Assembly (NCBI GenBank): GCA_964400545.1
Contig: CAYNUG010000004.1
Span: 1 to 50,631, forward strand
Length of the DNA stretch: 50,631 nucleotides
Direction: 5' to 3'
Source: an uncultured Clostridia bacterium
GTDB taxonomy: Bacteria > Acidobacteriota > Aminicenantia > UBA2199
The notes under the pieces were generated by a model. The model did no database searches, was not told the DNA's origin, and saw only the letters and a program-made list of their open reading frames with translations. Below, piece after piece: positions 4,189 to 40,119 of this stretch (positions are counted from its first letter, which is position 1; each line of letters opens with the position of its first letter). The position numbers and the translations under genes are program-made.

Positions 4189-4908
4189 TTAATGTTCAGA
4201 TTCCATAGCCCCTGCAAGATATATAGTTGTCAGCATAACAAATATATATGCCTGAAGGAGTGAAGTTATCAAAGCAAGCCCCATGATCGGAAGGGGCGCA
4301 ATAAATGGTACCAGTGAGGCAATGATAATAATTACCATATCCTCCCCGAAAATATTTCCGTAAAGTCTTATTGAAAGTGATAGTGGCCTTGCGAAATGAG
4401 ATATTATCTCTATCGGGATAAAAAGGATCGCAAGCCACCAGATCGGTCCGGTAAATGTTTTTAGGTAACCGAAAAATCCGTGTTTTCTGATGCCCTGAAA
4501 ATGGTAATAAACAAAAACAAAAAAAGCACAGCCTACCGTAACATTCAGATTGGCAGTCGGTGAACCCAACTCCGGTAAAAGTCCCATGAGATTTGAAACT
4601 GCAATAAAAATCCCCAGGGTAGATATGACCGGAATAAATTTTCTTCCCTCAACACCAATCGTGTCATCAATCATCCCTCTGAATCCTGTATACAGCATCT
4701 CCAGCATATTTTGCATTTTCCCCGGAAAGAGAGAGAGATTTTTTACAGTGAGTTTGAAAAAAACAATTATTATCAATGTCGCAATAAGGGCCATTAAAAT
4801 ATGGGACTGGATGATTTCCGTTCCCTGATCTGTATGCATTCCGAACAGACCGAGGATCTTTCTCAGTATTCCATTCACAAATTCAACGATCACCAACTTA
4901 TGTTCCAT
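4189..4908 (-). CDS. atpB: F0F1 ATP synthase subunit a
   Basis: SNLMGLLP, SPTANLN, EIISHFARPLSLSIRLYGNIFGE, LLQAYIFVMLTTIYL. Confidence 0.96.
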   Translation of the reverse strand: MEHKLVIVEFVNGILRKILGLFGMHTDQGTEIIQSHILMALIATLIIIVFFKLTVKNLSLFPGKMQNMLEMLYTGFRGMIDDTIGVEGRKFIPVISTLGIFIAVSNLMGLLPELGSPTANLNVTVGCAFFVFVYYHFQGIRKHGFFGYLKTFTGPIWWLAILFIPIEIISHFARPLSLSIRLYGNIFGEDMVIIIIASLVPFIAPLPIMGLALITSLLQAYIFVMLTTIYLAGAMESEH

Positions 4909-5284
4909 TTCTAAAGCTCCTGAATACCTGCCTGACCGCCTCTCCTGTGATCGACAATATGATCACAGAAAGTCCAAACAGATAAAATATCACTGCCGGT
5001 TCCGGATAGCCTGCCACAATAACAAAGATAACAGAGATCAAGATCATTTTACCAAGACCGGACAGAAGAAATATCCATTTCCCCGACCTTTTGAAAATAA
5101 TCCTGTCAACCACACGGATCATCAAATAGAGACCGAGAAAACTAATACTACTTCCAACAAAAAATATTATACAATAAAGGGCACTCTTTGTAAAAAAAAA
5201 TATTGCTGCAATTAGCACTAAAGTTATAAATAATGCTCTTTGGAATACCCGTTTTAACATCCTCTCACTACTTTCTTTTTTCAT
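4898..5284 (-). CDS. atpI: ATP synthase protein I (AtpI/UncI-like)
   Basis: 128-aa 4-TM protein immediately upstream of and overlapping atpB. Confidence 0.7.
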   Translation of the reverse strand: MKKESSERMLKRVFQRALFITLVLIAAIFFFTKSALYCIIFFVGSSISFLGLYLMIRVVDRIIFKRSGKWIFLLSGLGKMILISVIFVIVAGYPEPAVIFYLFGLSVIILSITGEAVRQVFRSFRNGT

Positions 5285-5534
5285 ATTTGTTAATTACTTT
5301 GAAAAAATTATAAAACCCTGCAGCAATTCCATAAAGGGTTAAAATAATTGTCAGTACAGGAGAAGTCCCCAACACATCATCCAGAAAAACACCAAGAAAA
5401 AGACCTGTAGCTATAGATACCGGAAACATTAGACCCAGAGTTGAATAAGCTGCTAATTTTTTTTTCTGTTCTGCAGAGTCAGAACCTGTTTCCGGTCTGA
5501 TACCCCTGTTTCTCAATAATTTCATAACAGGCAA
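5268..5534 (-). CDS. atpZ: AtpZ/AtpI family protein (ATPase gene 1)
   Basis: STLGLMFPVSIATGLFLGVFLDDVLGTSP..GIAAGFYNF motif; start uncertain. Confidence 0.85.
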   Translation of the reverse strand: MPVMKLLRNRGIRPETGSDSAEQKKKLAAYSTLGLMFPVSIATGLFLGVFLDDVLGTSPVLTIILTLYGIAAGFYNFFKVINKYEKRK

Positions 5535-5561
5535 AGATTTCCAGGATAAAGTTGATGTGGA

Positions 5562-5918
5562 CTAATAATCGTCCTCATCACCATTTTCTTTGATATTATA
5601 TCCATCAAAATTTTCAGAAGAATTTTCATCACCAAATTCATTTTCACCAGTAAAATATTCAATAGACCCGAACTCTTCTTCTCCGAAATCTTCTTTCCTT
5701 TCCTCGATTGAAGAAAAGAACTCATCTTCATCATCAAAATGTCTGATATAACTCGATTCCATTTCGCTATAGTAAAGTTCAATATAATCTTCGTCAAACT
5801 GGCAAAAAACCGACATATGCTCATTTGTATCTATGTCACCAATAACTTCATAAGTTTTCGAAGCAGCATTTCTTATCGCATCGAGAACTTTCCAGGAAAT
5901 GATCTCGAGTTCTTCCAT
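5562..5918 (-). CDS. Highly acidic hypothetical protein
   Basis: ORF with AAGGAG RBS 6 nt upstream of ATG 5918; D/E-rich throughout. Confidence 0.7.
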   Translation of the reverse strand: MEELEIISWKVLDAIRNAASKTYEVIGDIDTNEHMSVFCQFDEDYIELYYSEMESSYIRHFDDEDEFFSSIEERKEDFGEEEFGSIEYFTGENEFGDENSSENFDGYNIKENGDEDDY

Positions 5919-8130: not shown

Positions 8131-9255
8131 TCAACCGTTTAAATACAATCTGATCAACTCTTCGGCACCGTCTGTCGGAAGCATATCTCCATTAATGATC
8201 TTTTTTCTTATCTCCCCCAATCTTTCCCTGATGATCTTATTGGAATAAAAACTGTCTTTCAAAAAATCTTCGATCAGTGAAATTGTCCAGCTGAATGCCT
8301 GATCTCTTCTTCTGTTTTCAAAAATCCCGCTCTTTTCGGTTTGATCCCTGAATTCCTCAACGATCTCAACTATCTTCCTGATCCCTTTACTTTGTGCTGC
8401 AGATGCAGTTACCACTTCCCTCACCCAACCTTCAGTGGAAGGGAGAAGATAGTGAACTGCTCTCGAATATTCACCCCTGGTCATTTCAGCCCTTTTTATA
8501 TTTCCGCCATCAGCTTTATTAATAACGATCAGGTCGGCAAGTTCCATTACACCCCTTTTTATTCCCTGAAGTTCATCGCCACTTCCGGGATTAAGGATCA
8601 GAACAAAAAAATCTACCATCGACCTGACAGTAATCTCACTCTGGCCTACGCCAACTGTTTCAATAAGGATCACATCGAACCCGGAAGCTTCACATAGCAT
8701 CATCGTTTCTCTGCTCTTTCTTGTAACGCCTCCGAGAGTCCCGCCAGAAGGAGAAGGCCTGATAAAACAATGCTCTTCTCTTGATAACCTCTCCATCCTG
8801 GTCTTGTCGCCGAGAATACTTCCGCCGGTCAAAGTGCTGCTGGGATCAACAGCGAGAATTGCGACCTTGTGTCCATCGGACAGAAGTTCAAGACCGATCT
8901 CCTCAATGATCGTACTTTTCCCCGCTCCCGGAGGACCTGTTATTCCCAACCTCAAAGATCTCCCCCGGGAAGGTTTTATCCTTTTTAATATTTCTCTTCC
9001 TTTCATATAGCGCGGGGCAGAATTACTCTCAACAAGAGTTATTGCTTTAGCCAAAAGAGTTTTATTGTTTTTCCGTATACCGTCTAAAAAATCATCAACC
9101 GAGGGTTCCCCTTTTCGCTCAGGTCTCCTGCCGAAGGGTTCTTTTCCTGTATTGTCAACACCATGCTTAACGACTGTCGCAAATATATCCTCATCACCAT
9201 TATCTGTCCATTCCGGAAAATGATCTTTCTTTTCCCCCACTTTTTTCCTGCCCAT
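8131..9255 (-). CDS. meaB: Methylmalonyl-CoA mutase-associated GTPase MeaB/ArgK
   Basis: GITGPPGAGKST, VAILAVDPSS..TGGSILGDKTRM, ETVGVGQSE, GDELQGIKRG, NKAD. Confidence 0.95.
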   Translation of the reverse strand: MGRKKVGEKKDHFPEWTDNGDEDIFATVVKHGVDNTGKEPFGRRPERKGEPSVDDFLDGIRKNNKTLLAKAITLVESNSAPRYMKGREILKRIKPSRGRSLRLGITGPPGAGKSTIIEEIGLELLSDGHKVAILAVDPSSTLTGGSILGDKTRMERLSREEHCFIRPSPSGGTLGGVTRKSRETMMLCEASGFDVILIETVGVGQSEITVRSMVDFFVLILNPGSGDELQGIKRGVMELADLIVINKADGGNIKRAEMTRGEYSRAVHYLLPSTEGWVREVVTASAAQSKGIRKIVEIVEEFRDQTEKSGIFENRRRDQAFSWTISLIEDFLKDSFYSNKIIRERLGEIRKKIINGDMLPTDGAEELIRLYLNG

Positions 9256-9262
9256 TTTTTAA

Positions 9263-9291
9263 ATTATATCCTACAGAGACCAAGGTCTCAA
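9263..9291 (-). promoter_or_regulatory. Sigma70-type promoter of meaB, leaderless geometry
   Basis: TTGAGA, 17 nt, TATAAT, 7 nt, ATG; no Shine-Dalgarno. Confidence 0.65.
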
Positions 9292-9299
9292 TACATACA

Positions 9300-10205
9300 C
9301 TATTCTCCCAGTAAATTCTTTTCTGTGATCAGATCAAATAGTTTATCTGTGATAAATTCATATCCTTTAGCATTCGGGTGACCATCGGAGATTAAATAAT
9401 CCCCGTAATTAACAGAATTTATCTCTTTATGAAACAAAAAATTATTGTCAATGAATGGCACTCGGTAAGTAATGGCGATATCCCGGATCACTTCGTTAAC
9501 TTTATAACCATGAAAATGGAAATATGTCATAAATACCAAATTGAAATTATGGACCTTGCTCAGTTCTACAAATTTGATAAGATTGTATTTCAGTTGTTTT
9601 CTATGAATATCCCTGTTTATATAGAAAGTCTTATATTTATCGTTCTTTACATCGTCTGCATATAAAAAATTATTGTTTGACCGTACTCCGGTTATTTTCC
9701 CGTAAATCAGTTTATATAATTTATGGACCCGTAATGAGAGAAAGAATATTCTCATTTTGACTTTAAAAAGAGAAAACCCTGTCTTCTTTTTTTTCTCAAA
9801 CTCCCAATAAACACTATTATTCAGGTTCCAATGATCATTATTCCCTGTCATTACAATTACAAGGTGTGGCTTGTATTTGTTCAGGTTTTTTTTCAGAACA
9901 TTGATCGCCGTTGTTGAATTCGAACCCGATATCCCGAGATTCAGGACTTTGATCTCCTTTGACTTGTCTTTAATCATAAACCTTTTTTTCAGCATGTTCG
10001 GATAGTTCCCATCCTGTGCACCCACGGTCCACGAATCGCCAATACAAAAAATTGTCCTGTCTGATCTGTCAGATCTCTTCGAAATATTTATACTTTCTAT
10101 TTTTAAAAGATGAACAAAACCGAGGAACCTGAGAAAAACCTCCAATAATACTAACGAAAGAATAATCAAACCTAAAACCTTAACGGTTTTCCAAACATAT
10201 CTCAT
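9300..10205 (-). CDS. SGNH/GDSL hydrolase family membrane-anchored protein
   Basis: Blocks CIGDSWT, NLGISG, GNND, DGHPN; N-terminal TM. Confidence 0.88.
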   Translation of the reverse strand: MRYVWKTVKVLGLIILSLVLLEVFLRFLGFVHLLKIESINISKRSDRSDRTIFCIGDSWTVGAQDGNYPNMLKKRFMIKDKSKEIKVLNLGISGSNSTTAINVLKKNLNKYKPHLVIVMTGNNDHWNLNNSVYWEFEKKKKTGFSLFKVKMRIFFLSLRVHKLYKLIYGKITGVRSNNNFLYADDVKNDKYKTFYINRDIHRKQLKYNLIKFVELSKVHNFNLVFMTYFHFHGYKVNEVIRDIAITYRVPFIDNNFLFHKEINSVNYGDYLISDGHPNAKGYEFITDKLFDLITEKNLLGE

Positions 10206-13392: not shown

Positions 13393-14778
13393 TTGACCAT
13401 GAGTGATGAAATTAAGAAAGAGACCTTTCCACACAGTTTCTGGACCGCCAATATGACCGAATTATTTGAAAGGGGCGCATATTATGCGATGGCAAGTTTT
13501 GTTGTTCTTTACCTCGGACAATTGGGACTTGGCGACTACTGGCCGAGTACTTTGAACGGATTATTATGGACCCTTGTATATTTTTTACCTATTCTATCCG
13601 GAACAATTGCAGATCATATAGGTTTTAAAAAATCATTGCTCGCCGCATTCGTCCTTCTCTCAGCAGGATATATGCTTATGGGTTACCCTGTCTGGTTCGG
13701 CGGGAATGTACTAAGATCCACAGTTGAAAGTGAAGTGACCGCCGGTCTTGGGATAGTTCTTCCTGTTGTCTTTGCAATTCTTCTGATCGGATTAGGCGGA
13801 TCGGTCATAAAACCCTGTATCTCAGGAACAATTCAGAAAACATCCGGAAAAAGGGCGACCCTTGCTTTCGGAATATTCTATATGATCATCAATGTTGGTT
13901 CACTATTCGGAAGAGGTGTCAGTTATTTTGTCAGGACAGAATTTAATAACCTGAGTTTCATCTTTGCAGTGTCTGTCGCATGTTCAATACTCGCATTTTT
14001 TGTTGTATTGTTCTTCTATACTGACACAGAAAAAGAGCTTGGGACAAATATTGAAAAGAAACAGAAGAAATCAGTCAGGAAGATCCTTCTTGACATGGTC
14101 CTCGTCTTAAAGAATAAAAGATTCGCTCTGTTCCTTATCGTATCAAGCGGATTCTTCTTTATTTATTCTCAAGTATATAACGTAATACCTCTATATCTTA
14201 AAAAAGTAGTTGAACTTGATCCTGCCGTAGATTTGATCACAATGGCGAATCCATTTGTGATAGTCTTTTTTCAGTTATTAATAACAAAAAAATTCGGAAA
14301 GCTTAAACCGATAAATTCAATAATAGTAGGTATAATAATAATCGGACTTGCAATGGTCATAAACCTTGCCCCGATATTCATGGCTGGAGGAGTCACGAAA
14401 ATGGTCCTCGGTGATTTCATTCCGATAGGATCACTTTTCGCTGTTCTTACAGTTGGGATGATCGCATTCGGTGAACTTTTCACTTCAGCAAGGACCTATG
14501 AATATATCGGAGCTCTTGCTCCCAAAGGACAGGAAGGACTTTTCCTCGGATATGCAAATCTTCCGGTGGCAATAGGAGCATTGATAGGCGGTCCTGCAGG
14601 AGCATATATCTTTAACGGAATAATGTGTACAAATTCTACAAAACTTCCGTCCGGATTATTGGAATTGAACCCATTCTGGAATTCAATGGGCTGGGTGATA
14701 TTGATGACAATAGGACTAGTATCCGCATTCAGTATGTGGCTCTATAACAGGTGGCTTACAGCAAACCCAGTGAAGTGA
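13393..14778 (+). CDS. MFS transporter, proton-dependent oligopeptide (POT/PTR)-like
   Basis: ELFERGAYY (ExxERxxYY), KPCISG, FYMIINVGS; about 12-14 TMs. Confidence 0.85.
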   Translation: MTMSDEIKKETFPHSFWTANMTELFERGAYYAMASFVVLYLGQLGLGDYWPSTLNGLLWTLVYFLPILSGTIADHIGFKKSLLAAFVLLSAGYMLMGYPVWFGGNVLRSTVESEVTAGLGIVLPVVFAILLIGLGGSVIKPCISGTIQKTSGKRATLAFGIFYMIINVGSLFGRGVSYFVRTEFNNLSFIFAVSVACSILAFFVVLFFYTDTEKELGTNIEKKQKKSVRKILLDMVLVLKNKRFALFLIVSSGFFFIYSQVYNVIPLYLKKVVELDPAVDLITMANPFVIVFFQLLITKKFGKLKPINSIIVGIIIIGLAMVINLAPIFMAGGVTKMVLGDFIPIGSLFAVLTVGMIAFGELFTSARTYEYIGALAPKGQEGLFLGYANLPVAIGALIGGPAGAYIFNGIMCTNSTKLPSGLLELNPFWNSMGWVILMTIGLVSAFSMWLYNRWLTANPVK

Positions 14779-19309: not shown

Positions 19310-20413
19310 TTAAATAAACACCTCTTCTTCTTTTTCTTCTATTCTTTTCAGTTTTTCTTTAAGTTCTTTCTTCATGAGCTTATTCATTTTTTTCATTTCT
19401 ATTTCTTTTTTCATCATTATCTGTTTCATCTTTTCTTTCTCTTTTATCAACTTTAATTTTAACTTAAGGAGATTCCCATCCGAATCACGCCAAACTTTTA
19501 CATCCTCCATGATCTCAGGAACATTGATGGGAGCATTCTGAAAGTCAAAACGAAAAATATTATTACCCTTATCTCCGAAGAACATTGCACCGCCAAAAGA
19601 CCTCTCACCTAATTCTACTGTTATTTTTTTTACTTTCTTATGTCTAAGAATATTGAGAATGATCTTATCACCTTTTTTCTTTCCCATAATGGCCTTCGAA
19701 ACATCTCCCGGCCCTTTTATCATTTTCCCCTCAATTTTCAGAATAACATCACCGGAAAGAATTCCGGCCTTTTCAGCCGCACTTCCCTTTGTTACATTCA
19801 TGATCAGAGCACCACCGTCCTTTTTCACACCAAAGTATTTTGCAAAATTTTCATCCATTATCCTCATCTCAACGCCAAGATAAGCACCTTTTTTCATCTT
19901 GAAGTTTTTCAGTCCATTCAATTTCTCTAATTCTTTTAATTTTTTCAATTCACCATGAAGCTTATCTCCGAAGAACCGGAGCTTATTCCCTGCCTGATCT
20001 AAATATAACTCATTCATCTCCCACTTCCCGAGTACGACAGTGGCAGACATACCCTTTCCGTCCCTGACATATTTGATCTTCACTTTTGTGCCGGGGGCAC
20101 TTCTGCTTACAGCTTCAGCCACGTCATCAGGCCTGCGTGTCTTAATATCATCAATATACTGAATCACATCATATTTTTTCAATCCGGCTTTGAACGCAGC
20201 CTCATCTTTGGTAACACCCGTCACAAGGACACCGAATCTGACACCGAACTCTTCTCTGTCATCACCGGAAAGTTTCTCAATATTTACTCCGAGATACCCT
20301 TTCCCTTTCGATTTTCCCGCATAAGTCTGAACGGTTATCATCGCAAAAATCACAAGAAAAGCTAAAATGACCAAATGGACTTTCCCATATTGTTCCTTTT
20401 TTAAAAATTTCAT
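19310..20413 (-). CDS. Exported tandem-PDZ domain protein without protease domain
   Basis: Two GYLGV/AYLGV PDZ domains (AAFKAGLKKYDVI; AAEKAGILSGDVI), N-terminal signal/TM, GGAGG RBS before ATG 20413. Confidence 0.85.
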   Translation of the reverse strand: MKFLKKEQYGKVHLVILAFLVIFAMITVQTYAGKSKGKGYLGVNIEKLSGDDREEFGVRFGVLVTGVTKDEAAFKAGLKKYDVIQYIDDIKTRRPDDVAEAVSRSAPGTKVKIKYVRDGKGMSATVVLGKWEMNELYLDQAGNKLRFFGDKLHGELKKLKELEKLNGLKNFKMKKGAYLGVEMRIMDENFAKYFGVKKDGGALIMNVTKGSAAEKAGILSGDVILKIEGKMIKGPGDVSKAIMGKKKGDKIILNILRHKKVKKITVELGERSFGGAMFFGDKGNNIFRFDFQNAPINVPEIMEDVKVWRDSDGNLLKLKLKLIKEKEKMKQIMMKKEIEMKKMNKLMKKELKEKLKRIEEKEEEVFI

Positions 20414-20532
20414 AACTGCCTCCAATCTGTTTTTACTTCTTTAGACAACAGGAGAAATCAAAAAGTTTCAATCAGGGAATTTTTTCAGGATTATTTCAAG
20501 CTGAGATCGAACCGTAAATAATGGAACGGATA

Positions 20533-20838
20533 TCATTGTTTTTCAATTTTGACAAGCTCCTCTAAAAGTGAAGGATCGGATATCAACTTAAGTTTATCAT
20601 TTCTGGAAAGCTTTTTGATCCCTATTTCATATTTGAGAGCAAGGCTGTGTGATCCGGCATTTATTTTGAATACTATATCCAGAGGGCCTCTTCCTCTCAG
20701 ATATTTTGATCCCTTTCCGGAAACATGATCTTTGAACCTTTTTTCAATATTCTTTGTGATCCCGGTATAATAACTGCCGTCACCACCTTGAATAATATAT
20801 ATTACCCAATTGTCATGCGGTGAAGACTCTTCAGTCAT
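20533..20838 (-). CDS. GIY-YIG nuclease family protein (UPF0213/YhbQ-like)
   Basis: WVIYII...SYYTGITKNIEKRFKDH..GKGSKYLRGRGP, ALKYEIGIKKLSR. Confidence 0.92.
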   Translation of the reverse strand: MTEESSPHDNWVIYIIQGGDGSYYTGITKNIEKRFKDHVSGKGSKYLRGRGPLDIVFKINAGSHSLALKYEIGIKKLSRNDKLKLISDPSLLEELVKIEKQ

Positions 20839-21667
20839 CTATTATTCCGAGATCATCAATCTCTTCCCCTGATGCCCTGATCCTCGCAAGGATATCCGAA
20901 GCAATCTCTTCAATTGGTTTGTTTGTGACATCGATTACAGAACACTCATTGATGCCTCTGAATATCTTTCTCGCATATCTTAATTCTTCTGTAACATAAT
21001 CGATATCAGAATAATTCCCGGTGGAACCACCGAGATGGCTGTCACGAACACTTCTCAACTCGGATAAGTTTGTCGGATAAGTTGACAAACCGAACACATG
21101 AAGACCCTTCAGATCATAGATCATTTCCGGCGGTTCAATATTCAGAATTATAGGAACATTTGAAACTCTCCAGCCTTTGAAGGCAAGATATATACTGAGA
21201 GGAGTTTTAAATGTTCTCGATACACCGATAAGCACAACCTCGCCTTTATCAATTTCTTCAACCCTCTGCCCGTCATCATGTCTGAACGCAAATTCCATTG
21301 CCTCTATTCTTTGAAAATAGGCTCTGTTAAGCTTTCTGAACATTCCCGGAGTTTCAACAGGAGAATAATCAAGCTGACGGGAAAGCTGGGCAAGAAGAGG
21401 TCCCATAAGATCAATGGTCTCCACATCGTTCAGCCTCCCTAGTATCAGTATCCTGTCCCTCAATCTCTTGGATACAATGGTATGAACAACAAATCCCTTA
21501 TTCGCTTTGGCTTCCTCAATAATATCTTTGATCTCAGAACCCATATGAATATGAGAACGGATATTGATCTCAATATTCACCTTACCGAACTGAGCCATAG
21601 CGGACTGCAATGCACCTTTTGCCGTTTTTCCTGTCCCGTCCGAGATCACATATACTTGATGTTTCAT
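20831..21667 (-). CDS. ppsR: PEP synthase/pyruvate phosphate dikinase regulatory protein (kinase/pyrophosphorylase, DUF299)
   Basis: ISDGTGKTA, YFQRIEAMEFAFRHDDG, LIGVSRTFKTPLSIYLA, IDVTNKPIEEIA. Confidence 0.92.
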   Translation of the reverse strand: MKHQVYVISDGTGKTAKGALQSAMAQFGKVNIEINIRSHIHMGSEIKDIIEEAKANKGFVVHTIVSKRLRDRILILGRLNDVETIDLMGPLLAQLSRQLDYSPVETPGMFRKLNRAYFQRIEAMEFAFRHDDGQRVEEIDKGEVVLIGVSRTFKTPLSIYLAFKGWRVSNVPIILNIEPPEMIYDLKGLHVFGLSTYPTNLSELRSVRDSHLGGSTGNYSDIDYVTEELRYARKIFRGINECSVIDVTNKPIEEIASDILARIRASGEEIDDLGIIDD

Positions 21668-21748
21668 TTAATATTTCAATCCTAATCCCAAATACAAAAA
21701 AATTTCCTCAACAACAATAACAAATATAGATCATAATATAATATAAAT

Positions 21749-22681
21749 TCAAGTCCTAAATTCAGGAGCACTCTCAACATCTTTCCAGAAAGTATCATCT
21801 ATCTTGAGATTATGAGAACAGCATTTTACTTTTCTCACAAAATTGTTCAGATTTAAAAAATATGCTTTATTAAATTCCTGAATCTTACTTCTTTCCATAT
21901 TTAACACAAAATATTCATTTGCCTGCTTAACCAATTCCGCAAGGAGACAAAGCGCTTCACCTTTTCCGAGAGATTTCATCTTTGACTCAGGGCCCCTGTC
22001 AATAAAGATCACAGTTTTAAGTCTGACAGGTCTTTCAATGATAACAGACTTGAACTGCACTTTGTCCTTTTTCCAAAGGACTCTGCTCCATGTTGGGAAA
22101 GGGTAAGCAAAATATTCCCCGGAACTTAACCTCACAACAAGAGTCAGATCATCTGATAATGAGAACCATGGGAAACGGAACATCCCGCTGGCAGTTGATT
22201 TTCCCGAACCTGATGCGCCGGCAAGGAGAACTCCTTTACTTTCATTTTTATTTCCCGGATCAAATCTGACAAGTCCGGAGTGGATCAGGAAACCTCCACT
22301 TTCAAAAAAGCAACTGCCGATCAGTGCCGAAAGTTTCGATAATTGCCTCCACATCCACTCCTCTTCGGACAAAAAGTTAACCGAGCCGTCGCTGTTCCTG
22401 ACAGGAGTTCCATCCCTCATTAAGACCCTCGGAGTTTTTTCAGGGTCAAGCACAAAAGAAATGTTATTCTCATTATTGAAGTTGTCCTTTTTTTTAGATC
22501 CGTTGATTATTACATCTGTTCCTGCAGAACTCAAAATAATACGATTATTTATCTCTTCCGGAACTTCCGTCCTTTTCAGACTGAGGGACTCACCGAATAT
22601 AGATAAAACCTTCTCCGCTTTTGAATCACTGGCAGTGACTGCAACCCCACCTGTTTCGATCTTAATAATATAACCTTCCAC
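21749..22681 (-). CDS. HPr-kinase-related P-loop protein, SynChlorMet ScmC-like
   Basis: FLIHSGLV, GVLLAGASGSGKST, LSDD, YFAYPFPTWS; GTG start; adjacent to PqqD-family gene. Confidence 0.75.
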   Translation of the reverse strand: MEGYIIKIETGGVAVTASDSKAEKVLSIFGESLSLKRTEVPEEINNRIILSSAGTDVIINGSKKKDNFNNENNISFVLDPEKTPRVLMRDGTPVRNSDGSVNFLSEEEWMWRQLSKLSALIGSCFFESGGFLIHSGLVRFDPGNKNESKGVLLAGASGSGKSTASGMFRFPWFSLSDDLTLVVRLSSGEYFAYPFPTWSRVLWKKDKVQFKSVIIERPVRLKTVIFIDRGPESKMKSLGKGEALCLLAELVKQANEYFVLNMERSKIQEFNKAYFLNLNNFVRKVKCCSHNLKIDDTFWKDVESAPEFRT

Positions 22682-22682
22682 T

Positions 22683-22997
22683 TTAATCGGTCTCCCGATC
22701 TTCCGGAATCAGGTGGTTCTTTTCTCTGAGATCTATAAACATTCTCCGGTGCATTCTCCCAATAAGATCTGCGACATCTTCTTTCGCCTTCTCAAATTCC
22801 ACCAAAAAATTATCGCTGATAACTTTGGAAATATCTCTGATCGTTCTTTTCCCGTCAATTTTATTCCATACTAAAAGACTTGTGGAATTCAGGCCCATGG
22901 TTTCCGCTGTCAGAGTATTAAAAAGGACAGCATAATCTTCAAGATCATCAATTAAGATAATACTTTTTGATCTTTCAGGTGTAAAACTGATGTTCAT
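22683..22997 (-). CDS. PqqD family / RiPP recognition element protein (ScmD-like)
   Basis: AVLFNTLTAETMGLNSTSLLVWNKIDGKRTIRDI...DVADLIGRMHRRMFI, a typical RRE winged-helix pattern. Confidence 0.88.
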   Translation of the reverse strand: MNISFTPERSKSIILIDDLEDYAVLFNTLTAETMGLNSTSLLVWNKIDGKRTIRDISKVISDNFLVEFEKAKEDVADLIGRMHRRMFIDLREKNHLIPEDRETD

Positions 22998-23003
22998 ATG
23001 AGA

Positions 23004-23012
23004 ATTATATCA
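23004..23012 (-). promoter_or_regulatory. Extended -10 promoter of the RRE gene (leaderless geometry)
   Basis: TG-a-TATAAT, 6 nt, ATG 22997; no SD. Confidence 0.5.
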
Positions 23013-23026
23013 GAAATAAAAAAAAA

Positions 23027-23320
23027 TCAGGTAACGTACATTCCTGTTCTGCAATCATCAGGGTCACTATCTCCACCGGATCCGGCTTCACAATAGTATG
23101 GACTATTACCGGAAATACAATCACCCGCTCCCGGAGAAGAACCGGTACTACAATAGGTACCAGTCCATCCATCACCACCGGTTGCACATTGTTCCGGGGT
23201 CGGTCCGGCAGCACTTCCGGTAAAACAGCCCAAAACACTGTCCTGGCCGGTAACAGTTCTCGATTTGGCTCCGAGATCTATGCATTCTGGAGAAACATAC
23301 TTTTTTTTATTAATATTCAT
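23027..23320 (-). CDS. Cys/Gly/Ser-rich RiPP precursor peptide (97 aa, six CxxG repeats)
   Basis: Leader KKKYVSPECIDLG; core CFTG, CATG, CSTG, CISG, CEAG, CRTG; directly upstream of an RRE gene. Confidence 0.82.
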   Translation of the reverse strand: MNINKKKYVSPECIDLGAKSRTVTGQDSVLGCFTGSAAGPTPEQCATGGDGWTGTYCSTGSSPGAGDCISGNSPYYCEAGSGGDSDPDDCRTGMYVT

Positions 23321-23358
23321 ATAGTTATTTTCCAAACAATCATTCCATTATTGTTCCC

Positions 23359-23387
23359 ATTCTAATAAATAAAAATCCGATTGTCAA
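23359..23387 (-). promoter_or_regulatory. Sigma70-type promoter of the precursor peptide gene
   Basis: TTGACA (23387-23382), 17 nt, TAGAAT (23364-23359). Confidence 0.72.
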
Positions 23388-23398
23388 GACTCCTTGGA

Positions 23399-25255
23399 TC
23401 ACAACCTGTAGGTTACTCCCGATATACCAAGATTTTTTTTCATTTTCTTTAATTGACCAATAAAGTAGGACTTGTCTCCATCTGCCAAATCTAATGCCTT
23501 GACCGCAGCCTGAACAGCCTCCTTATATTTTTTGTTGATCAGGAATGCTTCCGCAAGGGTATCATAAATATGTGCTGCACTTTTAAGAGATACAGCATCA
23601 ATCGCAAGTCTCAGACTTCTTTTTCTCTCTCTTAATGATCCATCTTTGCTTTTAACAAGGAGCCAGGCCAGATTATTAAGTGTTTCCGGCTGTTCATATT
23701 TGATTGAAAGTGATATCTCATAATAATTCTTAGCTTTCTCCATATCTCCCTTTTCATGATATATAGCAGCAGCAGCAGCATATAATCTGAAGTCTGACGG
23801 AGATTTTCGGATCTCTCTTTCGATAGCCTGAATTAAAACTTTCTGCTCGATCCCGTTACTGATATTTTTCACAAAGGGATTCACGGTCAAACCAAACAAT
23901 ACTATCAGAACAATAGTATAACCGAGAACACTTTTTCTTACCTTTTTTTTATGTTTCAATATCTCCGACCGGTCTCTGATACATTTTTTCAAAAAATCTA
24001 TCCTCTCCCCGATCGAATAGTGATGCCAGTTGGATCCTTTCTTTTCACTGATCCCGCCCCCGAGTTTCTCAAATGAACTTATCAATTTTTCAGGATCAAC
24101 ACCGGAATCGAAACAATACAGATCCGCCTCACGTTCAAAGTTCCGCATGAAATAACCAAAAATGTATCTGAAATACAGGATAAACATAAGAATAGATAAG
24201 ATCCCTCCCAAAATATGAAACAGATCGATCCCGTGAACAACTGTATTTCCTGTAAGAATATCAATACCCAGAGATGAGTTCAGGATAGCAAGATTAACAA
24301 TGTTCATGATCCCGCCACTTAACACTGCAAATCCAACAAACAACAATAAATAATAAAGAATATGCTTCCCTTTGACATGCCCTGTTTCATGACTTACTAC
24401 AGCTATGATCTCTTCAGTTGAAAGAATTGCCATAAGTTCAGGTGTTATAAGGAGGTATCTGACGAAAGGAAAATACCCGAGCACTCCTGCTGTCATAAGG
24501 TTTCCGCTAAGAGGATCCCAAGATAGTATCTTACTGAATGCCACCCCTTCTTTTTGAGGAAATTTCAATATTTCAGTTCTCAGATCTCCTTCAGAAAGCG
24601 GTTTGCAATTCCAGAGCTTTATTATAAGGACCGGGCCGATCACCAGAAATATCAAGAGGAAAAAAGCAAGAAAGAGCAACTGGAGATATGGAGATCCATA
24701 GCTCTCCGTGATCCATCTAATATTAAAAATCTTTAAAATATCAACACTCAGGACAAGTATCAGCCAGGGGATCATTATTGCAAGATTGAATTTGATATTT
24801 TCAGAAACAAATTTTCCTGCGCTTACAGACATCCCTGATATATCTCCCGCCGTCATAAAACCCCAATACCATACTATCGCAAAATGCAGTATAAATACCG
24901 ACAATACCCCGATGTCCCCCGCAAAAGTAATTTCACCGAACTTAAGAACTGACATTATTATAACTTTAAGATCAAAAACATACATTTCAATTATAAAAAT
25001 GACGATCGCTTCAATAAGTAAAAAGTTGGTTGTTCTGGTATATTCGGATCTGAACAAATAATGACGATCTTCATCTTCAGGATACTTCTTTTTCAGTTTC
25101 AGGAATGAACTCCTGACATGAATTGAGAAAAGAAACACCAAAGCAGGAATTATCAGAATATCCAGATGAACAGGTAACAGATCATTTGAAGTCACCGGTG
25201 CACTTACAAAAGCAACTACAGCTATAATAAAATATAAAAAATTTTTGTATATCAT
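23399..25255 (-). CDS. M48 family membrane zinc metallopeptidase with C-terminal TPR repeats
   Basis: VVSHETGH (HExxH), RNFEREAD, HHYSIGERI; multiple TMs; TPR (AKNYYEISL, ETLNNLAW, HIYDTLAE). Confidence 0.9.
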   Translation of the reverse strand: MIYKNFLYFIIAVVAFVSAPVTSNDLLPVHLDILIIPALVFLFSIHVRSSFLKLKKKYPEDEDRHYLFRSEYTRTTNFLLIEAIVIFIIEMYVFDLKVIIMSVLKFGEITFAGDIGVLSVFILHFAIVWYWGFMTAGDISGMSVSAGKFVSENIKFNLAIMIPWLILVLSVDILKIFNIRWITESYGSPYLQLLFLAFFLLIFLVIGPVLIIKLWNCKPLSEGDLRTEILKFPQKEGVAFSKILSWDPLSGNLMTAGVLGYFPFVRYLLITPELMAILSTEEIIAVVSHETGHVKGKHILYYLLLFVGFAVLSGGIMNIVNLAILNSSLGIDILTGNTVVHGIDLFHILGGILSILMFILYFRYIFGYFMRNFEREADLYCFDSGVDPEKLISSFEKLGGGISEKKGSNWHHYSIGERIDFLKKCIRDRSEILKHKKKVRKSVLGYTIVLIVLFGLTVNPFVKNISNGIEQKVLIQAIEREIRKSPSDFRLYAAAAAIYHEKGDMEKAKNYYEISLSIKYEQPETLNNLAWLLVKSKDGSLRERKRSLRLAIDAVSLKSAAHIYDTLAEAFLINKKYKEAVQAAVKALDLADGDKSYFIGQLKKMKKNLGISGVTYRL

Positions 25256-25371
25256 GATAAATAAGGCTTTAACTGACCATTTCCAATGAACACATTTTAT
25301 ATCTAACCTTCAGGAATTGCAATAGGTATGATCCGGTGTTAAAATATCCGATTGGTAAAGGGGCTTCTATA

Positions 25372-26349
25372 ATGAGTAAAAATGTATATAACAATATTCT
25401 TGATGTTGTAGGAAATACACCGCTCGTAAAACTCCGGAAAGTAACTGCCGGAACAAAAAGCGAAATATTTGCAAAACTTGAATTTATGAACCCGATGGGC
25501 AGCGTAAAGGACAGGGCGGCAAAATATATGATCGAAAAAGCTGAAGAAGACGGCAGAATAAAAAAGGGACAACTCATAATAGAGAACTCGTCCGGGAACA
25601 CAGCTTTGGGACTTGCTCTTGTTGCTATTCAAAAAGGATACAAACTTAAAGTGATTGTAAGAGACAGGATCAGTCCTGAAAAGATCAACCAACTTGAAGC
25701 ACTCGGAGTCGATGTCCATAAAGTGGACAGTTCTCTTCCGCCTGAGGATCCGGACAGCTATAACAAGGTAACACCAAGGATAGTAAAAGAAAATCAGGAT
25801 TCATACTTTCCCGACCAACATAATAACAGAGAGAACAACGATTCACATTACAACTCAACAGGACCGGAGATATGGGAACAGATGGACGGGAAGATCGATT
25901 ATTTTATTGCCGGAATAGGTACCGGAGGAACTATCGGCGGAGTTGCCAAATATCTGAAAGAAAAAGATCCAAAAATAAAAGTGATAGCTATCGATCCGTT
26001 CGGATCCATATTCTACAATTATTTTAAGACCGGAAAAATAACCGAATCATCTCCATACCTTATTGAAGGGCTCGGAGATGAGTTCCTGATCAATTGTGCC
26101 GATTTTTCAAACATTGACGATATATATCAGATCTCGGATAAAGATTCGTTCAAGTTTGCAAGAAAACTCATGAAAGAAGAAGGAATACTGGGCGGAGGTT
26201 CAAGCGGTTCAGCCCTCTGGGGAGCCTTGAAACTTGCAAATTCCCTCGAGAAACCTGCAAGAATAGTTACAATTTTTCCGGACGGATCAGCCCGTTATCT
26301 CAGCACGATATTCAATGATGAGTGGATGAAAGAAAAAAAACTTTTTTAA
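25372..26349 (+). CDS. PLP-dependent cysteine synthase / cystathionine beta-synthase family protein
   Basis: VGNTPLV, KLEFMNPMGSVKDR, SSGNT, GIGTGGT, IEGLG, IFPDGSARYLS. Confidence 0.93.
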   Translation: MSKNVYNNILDVVGNTPLVKLRKVTAGTKSEIFAKLEFMNPMGSVKDRAAKYMIEKAEEDGRIKKGQLIIENSSGNTALGLALVAIQKGYKLKVIVRDRISPEKINQLEALGVDVHKVDSSLPPEDPDSYNKVTPRIVKENQDSYFPDQHNNRENNDSHYNSTGPEIWEQMDGKIDYFIAGIGTGGTIGGVAKYLKEKDPKIKVIAIDPFGSIFYNYFKTGKITESSPYLIEGLGDEFLINCADFSNIDDIYQISDKDSFKFARKLMKEEGILGGGSSGSALWGALKLANSLEKPARIVTIFPDGSARYLSTIFNDEWMKEKKLF

Positions 26350-36247: not shown

Positions 36248-39200
36248 CTAAATCCCGGTGATATTTGAAACAGCCAGTTTTTTCCCATTCTGGTCATAAG
36301 CACTGAACTTGTAACTATAGTTTTTATCTTTTTCCAGATATTTATCCAGATACTTGAATGAGTCGTTGGTAAGGTCCGAACTTCCGAATTGAGTGAGAAA
36401 AACAAAGTTCCCTCCATCTGTACTTCTCTCAACAACAAAGTTCGATATGGCAGTATGTAATTTATTATCAACTGTAAATGTAAGTTCACCATAATTCCGG
36501 GAGAGGATCCAGGCTCTCTCATTTTTCCTTTCTGCAGTGATATTCAGATTAATAATTACACTCTTCTGAAAAGTTACTACAATACTATGGTCGTCCCGGA
36601 CATTTGGAATAATATAGGGATTCGAGACCGGTTGAATAACTCCATTATCGGTTATTGTCGCTATTTCATAACCGGCATTCGGAGATATATTTATTGATGC
36701 CGCCTCGTTGTATGAAACATTCTGAGTCGAAGGAGAAACACTACCGTTTCCTCCGCTTACTGACGCATTTACCGTGTAAGATTCAAGAGAAAATGTCACC
36801 TCTACTATATGATCTGCTATCACATTATTGATTTCGTACGGATCTGCTAAAGCCTGGGACACTCCGTTATCAGTGATAGTTGCTATTATATAACCGGCAT
36901 TCGGAGATATATTTATTGATGCCGACCCGTTGTATGAAACATTCTGAGTCGAAGGAGAAACACTACCGTTTCCTCCACTTACTGATGCGATCACGGTATA
37001 ATTCGTTGAAATGGTAACAGAATCCGAGTCATTCCCGCCTGCAGGATCGTCCTCGGTGAAAGTATTGACCGTGGCGGTATTAGTAAATGACCCCCCTGTT
37101 GTAACGGTGGCAACTATCTCAAGGGTCTCTGTTGTCCCGTTTGATATATTCCCCACACTCCACAACCCAGAAACATTATTATAACTCCCGACAGTAACAT
37201 TTGCCGATTGAAACAAAAGTCCTGTAGGGAGAATATCGGTCACATCTACACTTGAAGCATCTGCAGGACCGTTGTTTGTAAGATTTATGGAAAAAGTCAC
37301 ATCGCTTCCCTCATTGGGATAACTATTGTCCACGGTCTTTAAAACCGATAGATCAGCATTGAACGAGAACTTTGTGACAAGACCATCATAACCTCCGGAA
37401 TGATTTCCCTGATAAGGATTAAATGTAGGAAAGTTAGAAGAAAGTGTATGGCCTGTAATATAAACATCTCCAATGTGATCAACATCAATACTGTGCACAT
37501 ATTCGGTATTATTTCCACCAAGATATGTGGAATAGACCAGTACATTTCCTGAAGAGGAAAGTTTGGTTACAAAAGCATCCCCCCCACCGACGTTGCCAGC
37601 CTGATAAGGATATAATGTGGGATAGTTAGCAGAATTCGTGTAACCGGTAATGTAGGCATTGCCTCCGGAATCAATTTTAATATCATACCCATAATCGCTA
37701 TTGGTTCCTCCAATATATGTTGAATAAACAAGGGTGCTTCCCAAAGGGGAAAGTTTGGTTACAAAAACATCAGCGGACCCGGCATTATTCGCTTGATAGG
37801 GATTTAATGTGGGAAAGTTAGTTGAATCCGTGTAACCGGAAACATAAGCATTTCCACTGGCATCAATGTTAATTCCCTGGACACGATCACTTCCATTTCC
37901 TCCGAGATATGTGGAATAGATCAAGGTACTTCCCGAAGGAGAAAATTTCGTTATATAAGTATCCCAACTTCCGGAATTACTAGACTGATAAGGATTTAAT
38001 GTGGGATAGTCAGCAGAATTCGTGTAACCGGTAATGTAGGCATTGCCTCCGGAATCGACCTCAATTTCATACTCATATTCATTACCACTTCCTCCAATAT
38101 ATGTTGAATAAATAAGGGTACTTCCTGAAGAGGAAAGTTTAGTTACAAAACCATCATTAACTCCGGCATTATTCGCTTGATAGGGATTTAATGTGGGAAA
38201 ATTAGTTGAATATGTGAAACCGGTAATGTAAACGATCCCAGTGGCATCAAGGTTAAGATCATATCCGAAGTCGTCAGCATTTCCTCCAAGATATGTGGAA
38301 TAGACCAGGGCATTTCCCGAAGAGGAAAGTTTGGTTACAAGAACATCATAACTTCCGGCATGACTACTCTGATAAGGATTTAATGTGGGATAGTCAGAAG
38401 AATTAGTAAAACCAACAATGTTGGCTATACCGCTGGCATCTACTTCGATAGCCTCTGCATAGTCTCCTCCACTTCCTCCAATATATGTTGAATAGACAAG
38501 GGCATTTCCCGAAGGGGAAAGTTTGGTTACAAAAACATCATATCCTCCGGCATTATTACCCTGATAATAATTTAATGTGGGAAAGTTAGTTGAAGATGTG
38601 GCTCCGGCAATGAAAGCGCTTCCACTTGAATCAACAGTAATACCAAAACCCCTTTCTTCAGAGCTCCCACCCAAGTAAGTTGAATATACAAGCACCATCG
38701 GGTCGATTACCAATGGTCTTTTTTTATCGTATTTTCCTATTGCAAATCCGTAAGTATTTTTATCTGTTTTTTTAAAGGTAGCTTTGATCTCTGCAAATTC
38801 ACTCTTTACCTGAGGGCTGAAAGACACACCCCCAACATTAATATTTTGATAGGCAAACGGTTTCTTATGAACCAGGGTCCCGAATCTTGTCCTGATATCG
38901 AGATCACCCTTTTTATTTACAGAAACTTTCTTTACATTTTTATATTCAAATTTTATATCTGAAGGATCACCATCAGGTTTGATTATCCAGTCGTACTCGA
39001 TCTCTTTTTCGATCCCATAGATCTTAAGGTCAATATTCGGATAAATATCTTTATACAATACGGCTTTGGACGTAACTATATCTTTTTTCCATTTGGATGG
39101 ATCCTTTCCTATAAAATAATTTACTCTGTGTAGTGTTTCTTCCACAGCCACAATTTCAGGGTTCCTGTTCGCTCCGACAAACAACAATCTCGAAACATCC

Positions 39201-39625
39201 CTGAAAGATGCCTTTGAATTAAGATCTGTAATAATATTCTCAGCCTCTTTTGGCTGAAGCTGATGGTTGAAACCAGATGGTTTAAGGTTTTCTCCTGTCC
39301 CCTGATTACTTATGCTGTCAAATATTAATCCCTCTTTTGTAATCCACAGAGTGTACCGGGATGCCTTTGCATAGAAAGCAGATCTCTTATCCACCTGCCC
39401 CTCATTGGGAATAAAATAGATTGGGATTTTCCCGTAGTTGACATCAACTTTTGGTGTTTTCCCGGGCTTTGATCTCTCCCCTTGCAACTTAACTGCAGAC
39501 GAGAACAGCCCCTCTCCTCCGGATTGAATACCTTTCTCGGCAGATTCCGCTCCAGTAAAGGTACCTGTCCCTAAATAGACCAACACAAAAATAACGAGTG
39601 TAAAAATCCGCAAACATTTCTTCAT
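36248..39625 (-). CDS. Secreted SBBP beta-propeller repeat surface protein with DUF11 and InlB-B-like repeat domains
   Basis: GGAGG RBS before ATG 39625, signal peptide, N-terminal YFIGKDPSKW/YPNIDL domain, 7x64-aa YSTY(L/I)GG repeats, ADLSVLKTVD..TNNGP (DUF11), 2x74-aa YTV.ASVSGGNGSVSP repeats. Confidence 0.88.
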   Translation of the reverse strand: MKKCLRIFTLVIFVLVYLGTGTFTGAESAEKGIQSGGEGLFSSAVKLQGERSKPGKTPKVDVNYGKIPIYFIPNEGQVDKRSAFYAKASRYTLWITKEGLIFDSISNQGTGENLKPSGFNHQLQPKEAENIITDLNSKASFRDVSRLLFVGANRNPEIVAVEETLHRVNYFIGKDPSKWKKDIVTSKAVLYKDIYPNIDLKIYGIEKEIEYDWIIKPDGDPSDIKFEYKNVKKVSVNKKGDLDIRTRFGTLVHKKPFAYQNINVGGVSFSPQVKSEFAEIKATFKKTDKNTYGFAIGKYDKKRPLVIDPMVLVYSTYLGGSSEERGFGITVDSSGSAFIAGATSSTNFPTLNYYQGNNAGGYDVFVTKLSPSGNALVYSTYIGGSGGDYAEAIEVDASGIANIVGFTNSSDYPTLNPYQSSHAGSYDVLVTKLSSSGNALVYSTYLGGNADDFGYDLNLDATGIVYITGFTYSTNFPTLNPYQANNAGVNDGFVTKLSSSGSTLIYSTYIGGSGNEYEYEIEVDSGGNAYITGYTNSADYPTLNPYQSSNSGSWDTYITKFSPSGSTLIYSTYLGGNGSDRVQGINIDASGNAYVSGYTDSTNFPTLNPYQANNAGSADVFVTKLSPLGSTLVYSTYIGGTNSDYGYDIKIDSGGNAYITGYTNSANYPTLYPYQAGNVGGGDAFVTKLSSSGNVLVYSTYLGGNNTEYVHSIDVDHIGDVYITGHTLSSNFPTFNPYQGNHSGGYDGLVTKFSFNADLSVLKTVDNSYPNEGSDVTFSINLTNNGPADASSVDVTDILPTGLLFQSANVTVGSYNNVSGLWSVGNISNGTTETLEIVATVTTGGSFTNTATVNTFTEDDPAGGNDSDSVTISTNYTVIASVSGGNGSVSPSTQNVSYNGSASINISPNAGYIIATITDNGVSQALADPYEINNVIADHIVEVTFSLESYTVNASVSGGNGSVSPSTQNVSYNEAASINISPNAGYEIATITDNGVIQPVSNPYIIPNVRDDHSIVVTFQKSVIINLNITAERKNERAWILSRNYGELTFTVDNKLHTAISNFVVERSTDGGNFVFLTQFGSSDLTNDSFKYLDKYLEKDKNYSYKFSAYDQNGKKLAVSNITGI
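36669..36985 (-). repeat. Near-identical 95-nt direct repeat (36669-36763 and 36891-36985; 222-nt period)
   Basis: Manual alignment gives 92/95 identity; encodes the ASVSGGNGSVSPSTQNVSYN..SINISPNAGY units. Confidence 0.9.
37367..38689 (-). repeat. Seven tandem 192-nt SBBP blade repeats
   Basis: 64-aa period; DNA-level near identity, e.g. 37617-37673 vs 38001-38057 (offset 384). Confidence 0.9.
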
Positions 39626-40119
39626 TGTTCCTCCAGTATTATAATAAATACAGAACAACTCCTTCTTAGCAGTTCCGCTTATAATCACATTAAATGGGGT
39701 TGTTATGACCATATTCATGGTTTGTACAACAACCTTTTTTTTAACTATATAAAATGTTTGCAGAGATCACACAAAATTAAAATATACATTATCTGAAAAA
39801 ATATACAATGTTTTTAACAAAATAAAAAAACATTTCAGAGAATATAAAAAACTCAAAAGAGCTTCCCCCTTAACCGGAATTGAGATATTTTTACTATTTC
39901 CTGACAATATTATTGCTTTATGCCATTATGTATTTGTGATAATCTCATTTAAAGAAAAAGAGACTGGAAAAATTTGAAGTGGAAATTAAGAGAAAGTTAA
40001 TTAGGGCAGAATTAATAAGAATCAAGAAATTTATGTTTAATGATAAAAGCTCTTTACAACATCATGTTCAATAACAGGAAGAAGATAAATAGATCATATA
40101 ATAGGTAATCGGAGGAAAT

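Follow-up and report, generated by a model that had tools for sequence, protein, structure and literature searches.

Within a 50,631-nucleotide stretch of DNA from an uncultured bacterium of the Aminicenantia (Acidobacteriota; contig CAYNUG010000004.1), referred to below as the window, positions 21749-23387 hold three genes that encode a cysteine-rich peptide, a stand-alone PqqD-like protein and a P-loop protein of the ScmC family. Together they resemble SynChlorMet (SCM), a cassette for peptides made by the ribosome and then modified after translation (RiPPs) that is defined computationally (NCBIfam TIGR04248 for ScmD, TIGR04249 for ScmC, TIGR04250 for ScmE and TIGR04251 for ScmF) and usually includes the radical SAM enzymes ScmE and ScmF, of which none was found in the window. 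We consider, with about even confidence and mainly by analogy, that the locus may be a functional, reduced SCM derivative, composed of a precursor, its PqqD chaperone and an ScmC that acts as an ATP-dependent peptide kinase. The evidence comes from the conservation of the three genes in diverged relatives and from the homology of ScmC to kinases of lasso peptide pathways.

Cassette layout and precursor peptide

The three co-oriented open reading frames (ORFs) described in an earlier note on this DNA were confirmed on the minus strand, where they lie head to tail in the order peptide, PqqD, ScmC. The precursor gene (23027-23320, minus strand; 97 amino acids, ATG start), recognized as an ORF with six C-x-x-G units, is followed by the gene for a stand-alone, ScmD-like RiPP recognition element of the PqqD family (22683-22997, minus; 104 amino acids), assigned by Pfam and NCBIfam matches, whose ATG lies 29 nucleotides (nt) past the precursor stop codon. 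The third gene (21749-22681, minus; 310 amino acids, GTG start) encodes the ScmC-family P-loop protein, as identified by TIGR04249 and PF27840. Its start lies only 1 nt past the stop codon of the PqqD gene, which suggests that the two genes are translationally coupled. A promoter-like site, TTGACA-17 nt-TAGAAT (23359-23387, minus), is located in the 78 nt that separate the precursor ATG from the stop codon of an M48 metallopeptidase gene further upstream. It agrees with the sigma-70-type consensus at 11/12 positions and, by consensus match alone, is the top match of this type in 20400-25500; the upper coordinate given in the earlier note, 23387, falls on its -35 box.

The precursor (MNINKKKYVSPECIDLGAKSRTVTGQD / SVLGCFTGSAAGPTPEQCATGGDGWTGTYCSTGSSPGAGDCISGNSPYYCEAGSGGDSDPDDCRTGMYVT) carries its C-x-x-G units exactly at Cys32, 45, 57, 68, 77 and 90, as had been noted earlier, and as many as six units appeared in just 12 of 200,000 composition-preserving shuffles. 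Its leader, approximately residues 1-27, reads Y8-x-x-P11-x-C13-x-x-L16-G17, followed by G25-Q26, and the lasso-type leader motif claimed for it is indeed present as YxxPx(hydrophobic), with position 13, a Cys in the window peptide, occupied by Val or Ile in relatives. This leader cysteine has no Gly at +3. The core also bears GDC, YYCEAG and DPxxC motifs. Homologous peptides begin at the position equivalent to the window precursor's ATG, and twelve residues (Y8, P11, G25, C32, G35, C45, G48, C68, G71, P87, C90 and G93) are invariant in precursors with and without radical SAM neighbours.

No Pfam or NCBIfam model, and hence no SCIFF model either, matches the window precursor. When 1.84 billion representative proteins were searched exhaustively with a profile, only 44 clusters matched the window-type peptide, of which about 40 are peptides of 85-125 residues starting with M-[RK]-Y-x-K-P and containing GDC, YYCE and DPxGCxxG; three homologues (P0066, P0068 and P0078) are located on contigs of approximately 1 kb with uninformative neighbourhoods. 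Modelled alone by AlphaFold2 on a shallow alignment, the precursor reached a pLDDT of only 36 and is predicted to be disordered, as would be expected for a substrate, and an autonomous fold was rejected on this result.

The PqqD-like and ScmC-like proteins

The PqqD-like protein matches Pfam PF05402 with an E-value of 2.7e-10 and 40.9 bits (cut-off 23.4) over model positions 3-67 of 67, and this full-length match above the gathering score identifies it as a RiPP recognition element, in line with the earlier assignment. Its top NCBIfam match is ScmD (TIGR04248; 48 bits against a 100-bit cut-off), and it stays under the cut-off of the pyrroloquinoline quinone (PQQ) model (23 versus 46 bits). It is 28% identical to BsfB1, the PqqD-type protein of a lasso peptide pathway (pairwise E 1e-10), and by analogy would bind the basic leader of the adjoining precursor.

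The P-loop protein finds its top NCBIfam match in ScmC (TIGR04249) at 104.3 bits versus the 125-bit cut-off, with residues 7-305 aligned to model positions 4-291, and its precomputed Pfam family is PF27840 (ScmC); the kinship with SynChlorMet proposed earlier is borne out in that ScmC and ScmD are the top family matches of the two proteins. The protein carries the motifs H134, G155-x-x-G158-x-G160-K161-S162-T163 and D177-D178, which vary little or not at all across 160 ScmC sequences. The AlphaFold2 model of ScmC is of good quality (pLDDT 86.5, pTM 0.86), and its top 50 Foldseek neighbours in the PDB are phosphoenolpyruvate (PEP) carboxykinases, with E-values from 3e-6 and a query TM-score of approximately 0.45. 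The PEP-carboxykinase (PEPCK) fold class also takes in the catalytic domain of HPr kinase/phosphorylase (HprK/P). When the family profile was compared with PDB sequences, H134, the P-loop and D177-D178 aligned with the corresponding parts of the HprK/P entries 1ko7 and 1jb1 (E 0.01-0.02). None of the HprK models passes for ScmC, the sole NCBIfam match of this type being to HprK-related kinase A at E 0.012.

The best clue to function comes from a kinase that has been characterized. BsfK, an HPr-kinase-like enzyme of a lasso peptide pathway in Bradymonas sediminis, phosphorylates the linear precursor at Ser3; the reaction requires the leader and is greatly speeded up by the PqqD-type BsfB1, and the BsfK motif H148-G163-G166-G168-K169-S170-D186-D187 has been validated by mutagenesis (PMC10368454). 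PadeK-type kinases of paeninodin pathways (PadeB1/PadeK) phosphorylate a C-terminal Ser (PMC8498205). Aligned by hhalign, the ScmC family profile matches BsfK with a probability of 93% and E 2.7e-7 over 150 columns that cover the whole catalytic domain, and the validated BsfK residues correspond to H134-G155-G158-G160-K161-S162-D177-D178 of the window protein. The HPr-kinase-like ATPase of the earlier note is therefore recovered, both by its H...GxxGxGKS...DD motif and by homology to a lasso-precursor kinase.

Natural fusions of PqqD to ScmC occur in P0020, P0031, P0036 and others (loci L014, L019 and L022), and P0053 joins an S26 peptidase to ScmC. These fusions argue that ScmC may act directly on the leader-bound peptide. 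The most conserved motif specific to ScmC is A-H-P-x-P-T-W-S, the His of which is found in 157 of 160 family members (98%). The window genome is the only one among the 160 with Tyr at this position (H193Y, CAC>TAC, codon at 22103-22105; motif A-Y193-P-F-P-T-W-S). A Logan contig assembled independently (L169) shows the same base, and His is retained in L001, the nearest relative.

Relatives with and without radical SAM genes

No ORF of at least 80 residues in the window contains a CxxxCxxC motif, and ScmE and ScmF of a bona fide SCM cassette (L007; 584 and 530 bits versus NCBIfam cut-offs of 400) found no match in the window as phmmer queries. Neither radical SAM nor YcaO, LanC/LanM, lasso cyclase or ABC exporter genes were seen in the 50 kb, and Pfam scans, which covered 36 of the larger window ORFs, revealed no B2 leader peptidase or lasso cyclase; the local lack of radical SAM, YcaO, lanthipeptide and lasso enzymes that the earlier note had reported thus holds.

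The contigs that hold ScmC homologues of 35-65% identity were located, with flanks of 10 kb covered on each side. Nine loci make up what we refer to as the window clade: the window itself (WIN), L001, L002, L004, L008, L006, L011/L090, L012 and L174. All nine carry the peptide, PqqD and ScmC genes in identical order, in one of two unrelated contexts, namely PALP / M48-TPR / cassette / (PSRP) / GIY-YIG / PDZ or C1 peptidase / sulfatase / AftB-like / cassette. With the L007 queries, phmmer found nothing like ScmE or ScmF in the 10-kb flanks of these nine loci. The sole CxxxCxxC ORF in the flanks of the clade, with 731 residues and 7 kb downstream in L008, has its motif at residue 354, a position that, from the sequence, appears unlike that of a radical SAM site. 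Window-clade ScmC proteins score 107-112 bits against TIGR04249.

Within the clade, identity amounts to 59-89% for the peptide, 31-64% for PqqD and 34-65% for ScmC. Nonsynonymous divergence (dN) of the peptide is 0.05-0.34 with synonymous divergence (dS) saturated, and dN/dS is 0.05-0.2 where computable. Purifying selection on the peptide is therefore strong, in the core as well, and constrains it more tightly than its enzymes. Antimicrobial RiPPs typically show the opposite pattern. As a separate observation, L008 (same contig as L010) carries tandem precursors at 8723-9019 and 9101-9403, the second of which is diverged, reads …CTTGLNPS and lacks GDC and YYCE.

For SCM cassettes at large, 169 loci were analysed by scoring their ORFs with hidden Markov models (HMMs) of ScmC, PqqD and the peptide, together with phmmer using the ScmE and ScmF of L007. 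Radical SAM genes were counted in a 7-kb radius around those ScmC genes, 63 in all, whose contigs extend 5 kb or more upstream: two such genes were found for 41/63, one for 2/63 and none for 20/63. The earlier note had held that homologous cassettes always containing radical SAM genes would make this a known SynChlorMet variant; with nearly one third of the ScmC genes (20/63) having none within 7 kb, such a rule does not apply. The radical-SAM-less set comprises all window-clade loci, Chloroflexota (L014, L015), other Acidobacteriota (L013, L022), Aminicenantes (L016/L017, L087) and others, and includes ScmC proteins above the NCBIfam cut-off (L015, 176 bits; L013, 141 bits). In a crude neighbour-joining tree the window clade is monophyletic and free of radical SAM genes throughout, and its sister group is mixed.

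With iterated peptide HMMs, small ORFs of the same kind were also recognized next to most classic cassettes, where the peptides have a leader of the form K-Y-E-x-P-hydrophobic-...-L-G and then 2-10 C-x-small-G units. The CxxG peptide family adjoins bona fide ScmE/F cassettes (L007, L099, L170; about 60 classic loci), and no Pfam or NCBIfam model matches the classic precursors. Judging from these alignments and neighbourhoods, CxxG-repeat peptides with a Y-x-x-P leader appear to be the general precursor family of SCM cassettes, one without a Pfam or NCBIfam model. Gly occupies Cys+3 at 90% of 354 core cysteines in radical SAM loci and at 99% of 113 in radical-SAM-less ones. Cys+2, the third repeat position at which the earlier note had seen Ser/Thr as natural acceptors, is merely small (S/T/A), with Ala the most frequent residue in classic loci, and only Gly+3 is conserved; this candidate was rejected. 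A C-terminal Ser/Thr as a paeninodin-like acceptor was likewise dismissed as a conserved trait, the termini reading ...MYVT in the window clade and GPSFA, GPVP, GPTP or the like in the wider family.

The closest outgroup precursor, P0067 (YYCESG...NDPNGCRTG), is part of a complete PqqD-precursor-PqqD-ScmE-ScmF-ScmC cassette in L170, and the radical-SAM-less state is thereby read as derived: the radical SAM genes were, from this comparison, probably lost or relocated from the window-clade locus. In the bona fide cassette L007 the ScmD-type protein, at 89 bits, is also below its cut-off. A search for SynChlorMet, ScmC/D/E/F, TIGR04248-51 and PF27840 found no characterization in the searchable literature.

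Several individual cassettes deserve description. In Candidatus Aquidulcis (Chloroflexota; L019:7659-13667), ScmE, precursor, a PqqD::ScmC fusion and ScmF are followed directly by precursor-PqqD-ScmC, and with this three-gene unit adjoining a classic cassette, the unit exists as a discrete module. In L016 (4886-5434, minus) and L017 (8851-9399, plus), one labelled Eubacteriales and the other Aminicenantes, both without radical SAM, a CxxG precursor apparently follows an S24/S26 signal-peptidase-like domain as a fusion to the C-terminus of that domain, with no Met before the Y-x-K-P leader. The fusion may represent a self-processing precursor; in each of the two loci there are, in addition, two paralogues of ScmC and an ABC exporter. 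L007 (6820-8502) and L099, classic cassettes close to the window clade, carry a Wzz/GNVR + ParA-like gene of the chain-length-determinant / BY-kinase type between ScmE and ScmF. In the radical-SAM-less L013 (Acidobacteria), the gene directly after ScmC (4416-5624) has weak sulfotransferase matches (Gal-3-O-sulfotransferase, E 2e-5), and the PqqD gene is found 2 kb downstream in the reverse orientation. Some radical-SAM-less cassettes might, on this hint, have alternative tailoring enzymes.

Directly upstream of the window cassette and co-oriented with it is a gene for a polytopic membrane protein of 618 amino acids with HExxH, an M48 metallopeptidase with a C-terminal TPR region (23399-25255, minus; Pfam), a neighbour of uncertain status. 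M48 adjoins the cassette in WIN, L001, L002, L004, L008 and L174, loci that are syntenic with one another on both flanks, and is missing beside it in the second context (L006, L011, L012); the cassette, moreover, has a promoter-like site of its own. It is possible that this protein is a leader peptidase, a cassette member or a mere syntenic neighbour. The upstream peptidase of L008 is split into an M48 ORF of 403 residues and a TPR ORF of 143. On the other side, 81 nt downstream of ScmC, there is a gene for a PEP-synthase/PPDK regulatory kinase-pyrophosphorylase (PSRP; 20831-21667, minus; PF03618, 268 bits). PSRP adjoins the cassette in 4/5 of the M48-context loci reaching past ScmC. Its absence from L002, L006, L011 and L012 led us to reject it as a cassette member and to regard it as a neighbour that is probably unrelated; the scanned ORFs of the window include neither a PEP synthase nor a PPDK gene. 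The other scanned ORFs are of the housekeeping type, among them enolase, ATP synthase a and c, LepA, MeaB, glutamate dehydrogenase, PGI, a PBP, an aminotransferase, a PDZ protease and an amidase, and the closest gene for a transporter, of the MFS/POT type, is 7 kb off (13393-14778). The best named matches of LepA come from Acidobacteriota (87%) and Candidatus Aminicenantes (80-81%), which places the host in this group. An unrelated, probable surface protein of 1156 amino acids (36248-39718, minus) combines DUF7948, SBBP beta-propeller repeats and DUF11.

Known systems and competing readings

Compared with SynChlorMet, the window shares the top family matches of ScmC and ScmD and a precursor of the CxxG-repeat family that stands beside ScmE/ScmF in L007, L099 and L170. 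On the other hand, the window has no ScmE/ScmF in 50 kb and the clade members none within 10 kb, both proteins score below the NCBIfam thresholds (ScmC 104 versus 125 bits, ScmD 48 versus 100 bits), and the window peptide is long and slow-evolving, with GDC, YYCE, DPxxC and a leader Cys, whereas most classic cassettes bear variable C-T/S-A-G repeat peptides instead. The lasso systems BsfB1/BsfK and PadeB1/PadeK are matched by the window's stand-alone PqqD, its enzyme with the HPr-kinase-like motif and its Y-x-x-P-x-hydrophobic leader. Unlike them, the window lacks a lasso cyclase, B2 protease, ABC exporter and nucleotidyltransferase, the core has approximately 70 residues and six Cys but no macrolactam Gly1/Asp-Glu pattern, and ScmC differs in its N-terminal domain and has the extra conserved AHPxPTWS motif. 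With HprK/P and PEP carboxykinase, ScmC has in common the fold and the arrangement of catalytic His, P-loop and Asp-Asp; at E 0.01-0.02, however, its similarity to HprK/P is marginal, neither HPr nor a phosphotransferase system forms its context, and its partners are a peptide and PqqD.

The six-cysteine repeat architecture of the window peptide resembles that of ranthipeptides, SCIFF and freyrasin, and the SPASM maturases of the classic SCM relatives show weaker matches to PapB- and sactipeptide-type models. The window differs from these in having no radical SAM, and in a C-x-small-G pattern rather than CxxxD or the SCIFF pattern. PQQ and mycofactocin pathways share with it a PqqD-family chaperone, a highly conserved precursor and the absence of an exporter; the window, by contrast, has no PqqA/B/C/E or MftC, its PqqD is under the PQQ cut-offs, and the partner enzyme has a kinase fold.

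If the cassette is a reduced SCM derivative with ScmC as a peptide kinase, the operon would be transcribed from its own promoter-like site, which matches the consensus. The PqqD-type protein would, by homology, bind the basic leader with its Y-x-x-P-x-hydrophobic...L-G motif and presumably hand the disordered Cys/Gly/Ser/Thr/Asp-rich core to ScmC. From its homology to BsfK, ScmC would be expected to phosphorylate the peptide with ATP-Mg, most likely at Ser/Thr hydroxyl(s). ScmE and ScmF would have been lost from the locus in the window lineage. Since the peptide evolves slowly and the module has no exporter or dedicated protease, the product may be a conserved physiological peptide, which would be cofactor-like, redox-active or metal-binding through its six cysteines, rather than a fast-evolving antibiotic. 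A stronger version of this proposal, that the three genes are a self-sufficient new RiPP type in which ScmC alone, with PqqD and ATP, yields an intracellular, non-antibiotic product, is possible although we hold it only tentatively. Such a product could bear several phosphates or have been activated by ATP in another way, such as backbone cyclisation at Cys, and again be cofactor-like, redox-active or metal-binding.

Several points weigh against the kinase reading. The likeness of ScmC to BsfK is at the superfamily level, with 22% identity over the aligned columns; both window proteins score under the NCBIfam cut-offs; and H193Y, at a His conserved in 98% of the family, might impair the window's ScmC. 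The search reached 10 kb per side in the relatives and about 50 kb in the window. Among the aligned precursors no Ser/Thr acceptor is kept family-wide, either at Cys+2 or as a C-terminal Thr. Moreover, the kept Cys, Gly+3, GDC and DPxGC are common to peptides linked to ScmE/ScmF (L007, L019, L170), which suggests chemistry at the cysteines for which a Ser/Thr kinase does not account, in keeping with radical SAM enzymes acting in trans. The locus may accordingly be one part of a split SCM cluster, whose ScmE/ScmF-type maturases, encoded elsewhere, cross-link the cysteines while ScmC keeps its usual accessory role. This is a minority possibility in our judgment, yet one that has to be taken seriously: P0067, the closest outgroup, sits in a complete cassette; the Cys, Gly+3 and Asp positions of radical-SAM-linked precursors have been kept under strong selection; and the three-gene module of L019 adjoins a classic cassette. 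What speaks against maturases in trans is that no ScmE/F-like gene was found within 10 kb in the nine clade loci or in the 50-kb window, and that classic cassettes are nearly always contiguous, 41/43 having both genes beside ScmC. Among the best 80 of 158 matches, there is one ScmC locus per window-clade genome, and radical-SAM-less modules arise repeatedly and independently in several phyla.

The lack of a conserved Ser/Thr position could also mean that ScmC is an ATP-dependent activator at the C-x-small-G units, for instance through phosphorylation of an enol or backbone amide oxygen that drives Cys cyclodehydration, or through S-phosphorylation; ScmC would then define the class of SCM peptides, with radical SAM enzymes as optional tailoring. 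Only ScmC and the CxxG repeats are shared by all cassettes, radical SAM is dispensable in about one third of them, and in structure ScmC stands closest to PEP carboxykinases, whose phosphoryl acceptor is an enolate oxygen. We nevertheless regard this purely inferential reading as unlikely, given that the only characterized homologues, HprK/P and the lasso kinases, phosphorylate Ser/Thr hydroxyls, and we know of no precedent for backbone or S-activation chemistry in the PEPCK/HprK fold. It is very unlikely that the small ORF is an ordinary, unmodified Cys-rich metal or redox protein with PqqD and ScmC as unrelated neighbours or regulators. That view would be in keeping with a peptide more conserved than the enzymes and with a module without protease or exporter, but the linkage of precursor, PqqD and ScmC spans phyla and contexts and includes gene fusions, a leader motif has been preserved, as it is in RiPPs that depend on a leader, and the peptide is predicted to be disordered. 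Most improbable of all is a decaying SCM remnant without current function, as the earlier note had allowed. The missing radical SAM genes, the scores of ScmC and ScmD under the NCBIfam cut-offs and the unique H193Y would be consistent with it, but about nine genomes, diverged to the point of dS saturation, have kept all three ORFs intact, the peptide shows a dN/dS of 0.05-0.2, no variation is seen in the catalytic H, P-loop and DD, the operon structure and promoter-like site are kept, and H193Y is confined to one genome. Decay is thus largely refuted for the clade as a whole.

SCM cassettes are widespread among anaerobes, including Desulfobacterota, Chloroflexota, Acidobacteriota/Aminicenantes, methanogens and others, and so far they have been represented only by family models, without an assigned precursor or chemistry. 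The assignment of the CxxG precursor, the recurrent radical-SAM-less architecture and the homology of ScmC to lasso kinases are new relative to the Pfam and NCBIfam models queried. A cassette of peptide, chaperone and ScmC alone offers a minimal natural system, in which the activity of ScmC is separable from radical SAM chemistry, and its homology to chaperone-dependent lasso kinases makes the role of ScmC directly testable. If the module were self-sufficient, it would represent a RiPP class built on an enzyme of the PEPCK/HprK fold and would indicate that an uncultured phylum makes a conserved physiological peptide; ScmC, rather than the radical SAM enzymes, would then define the SCM peptide class.

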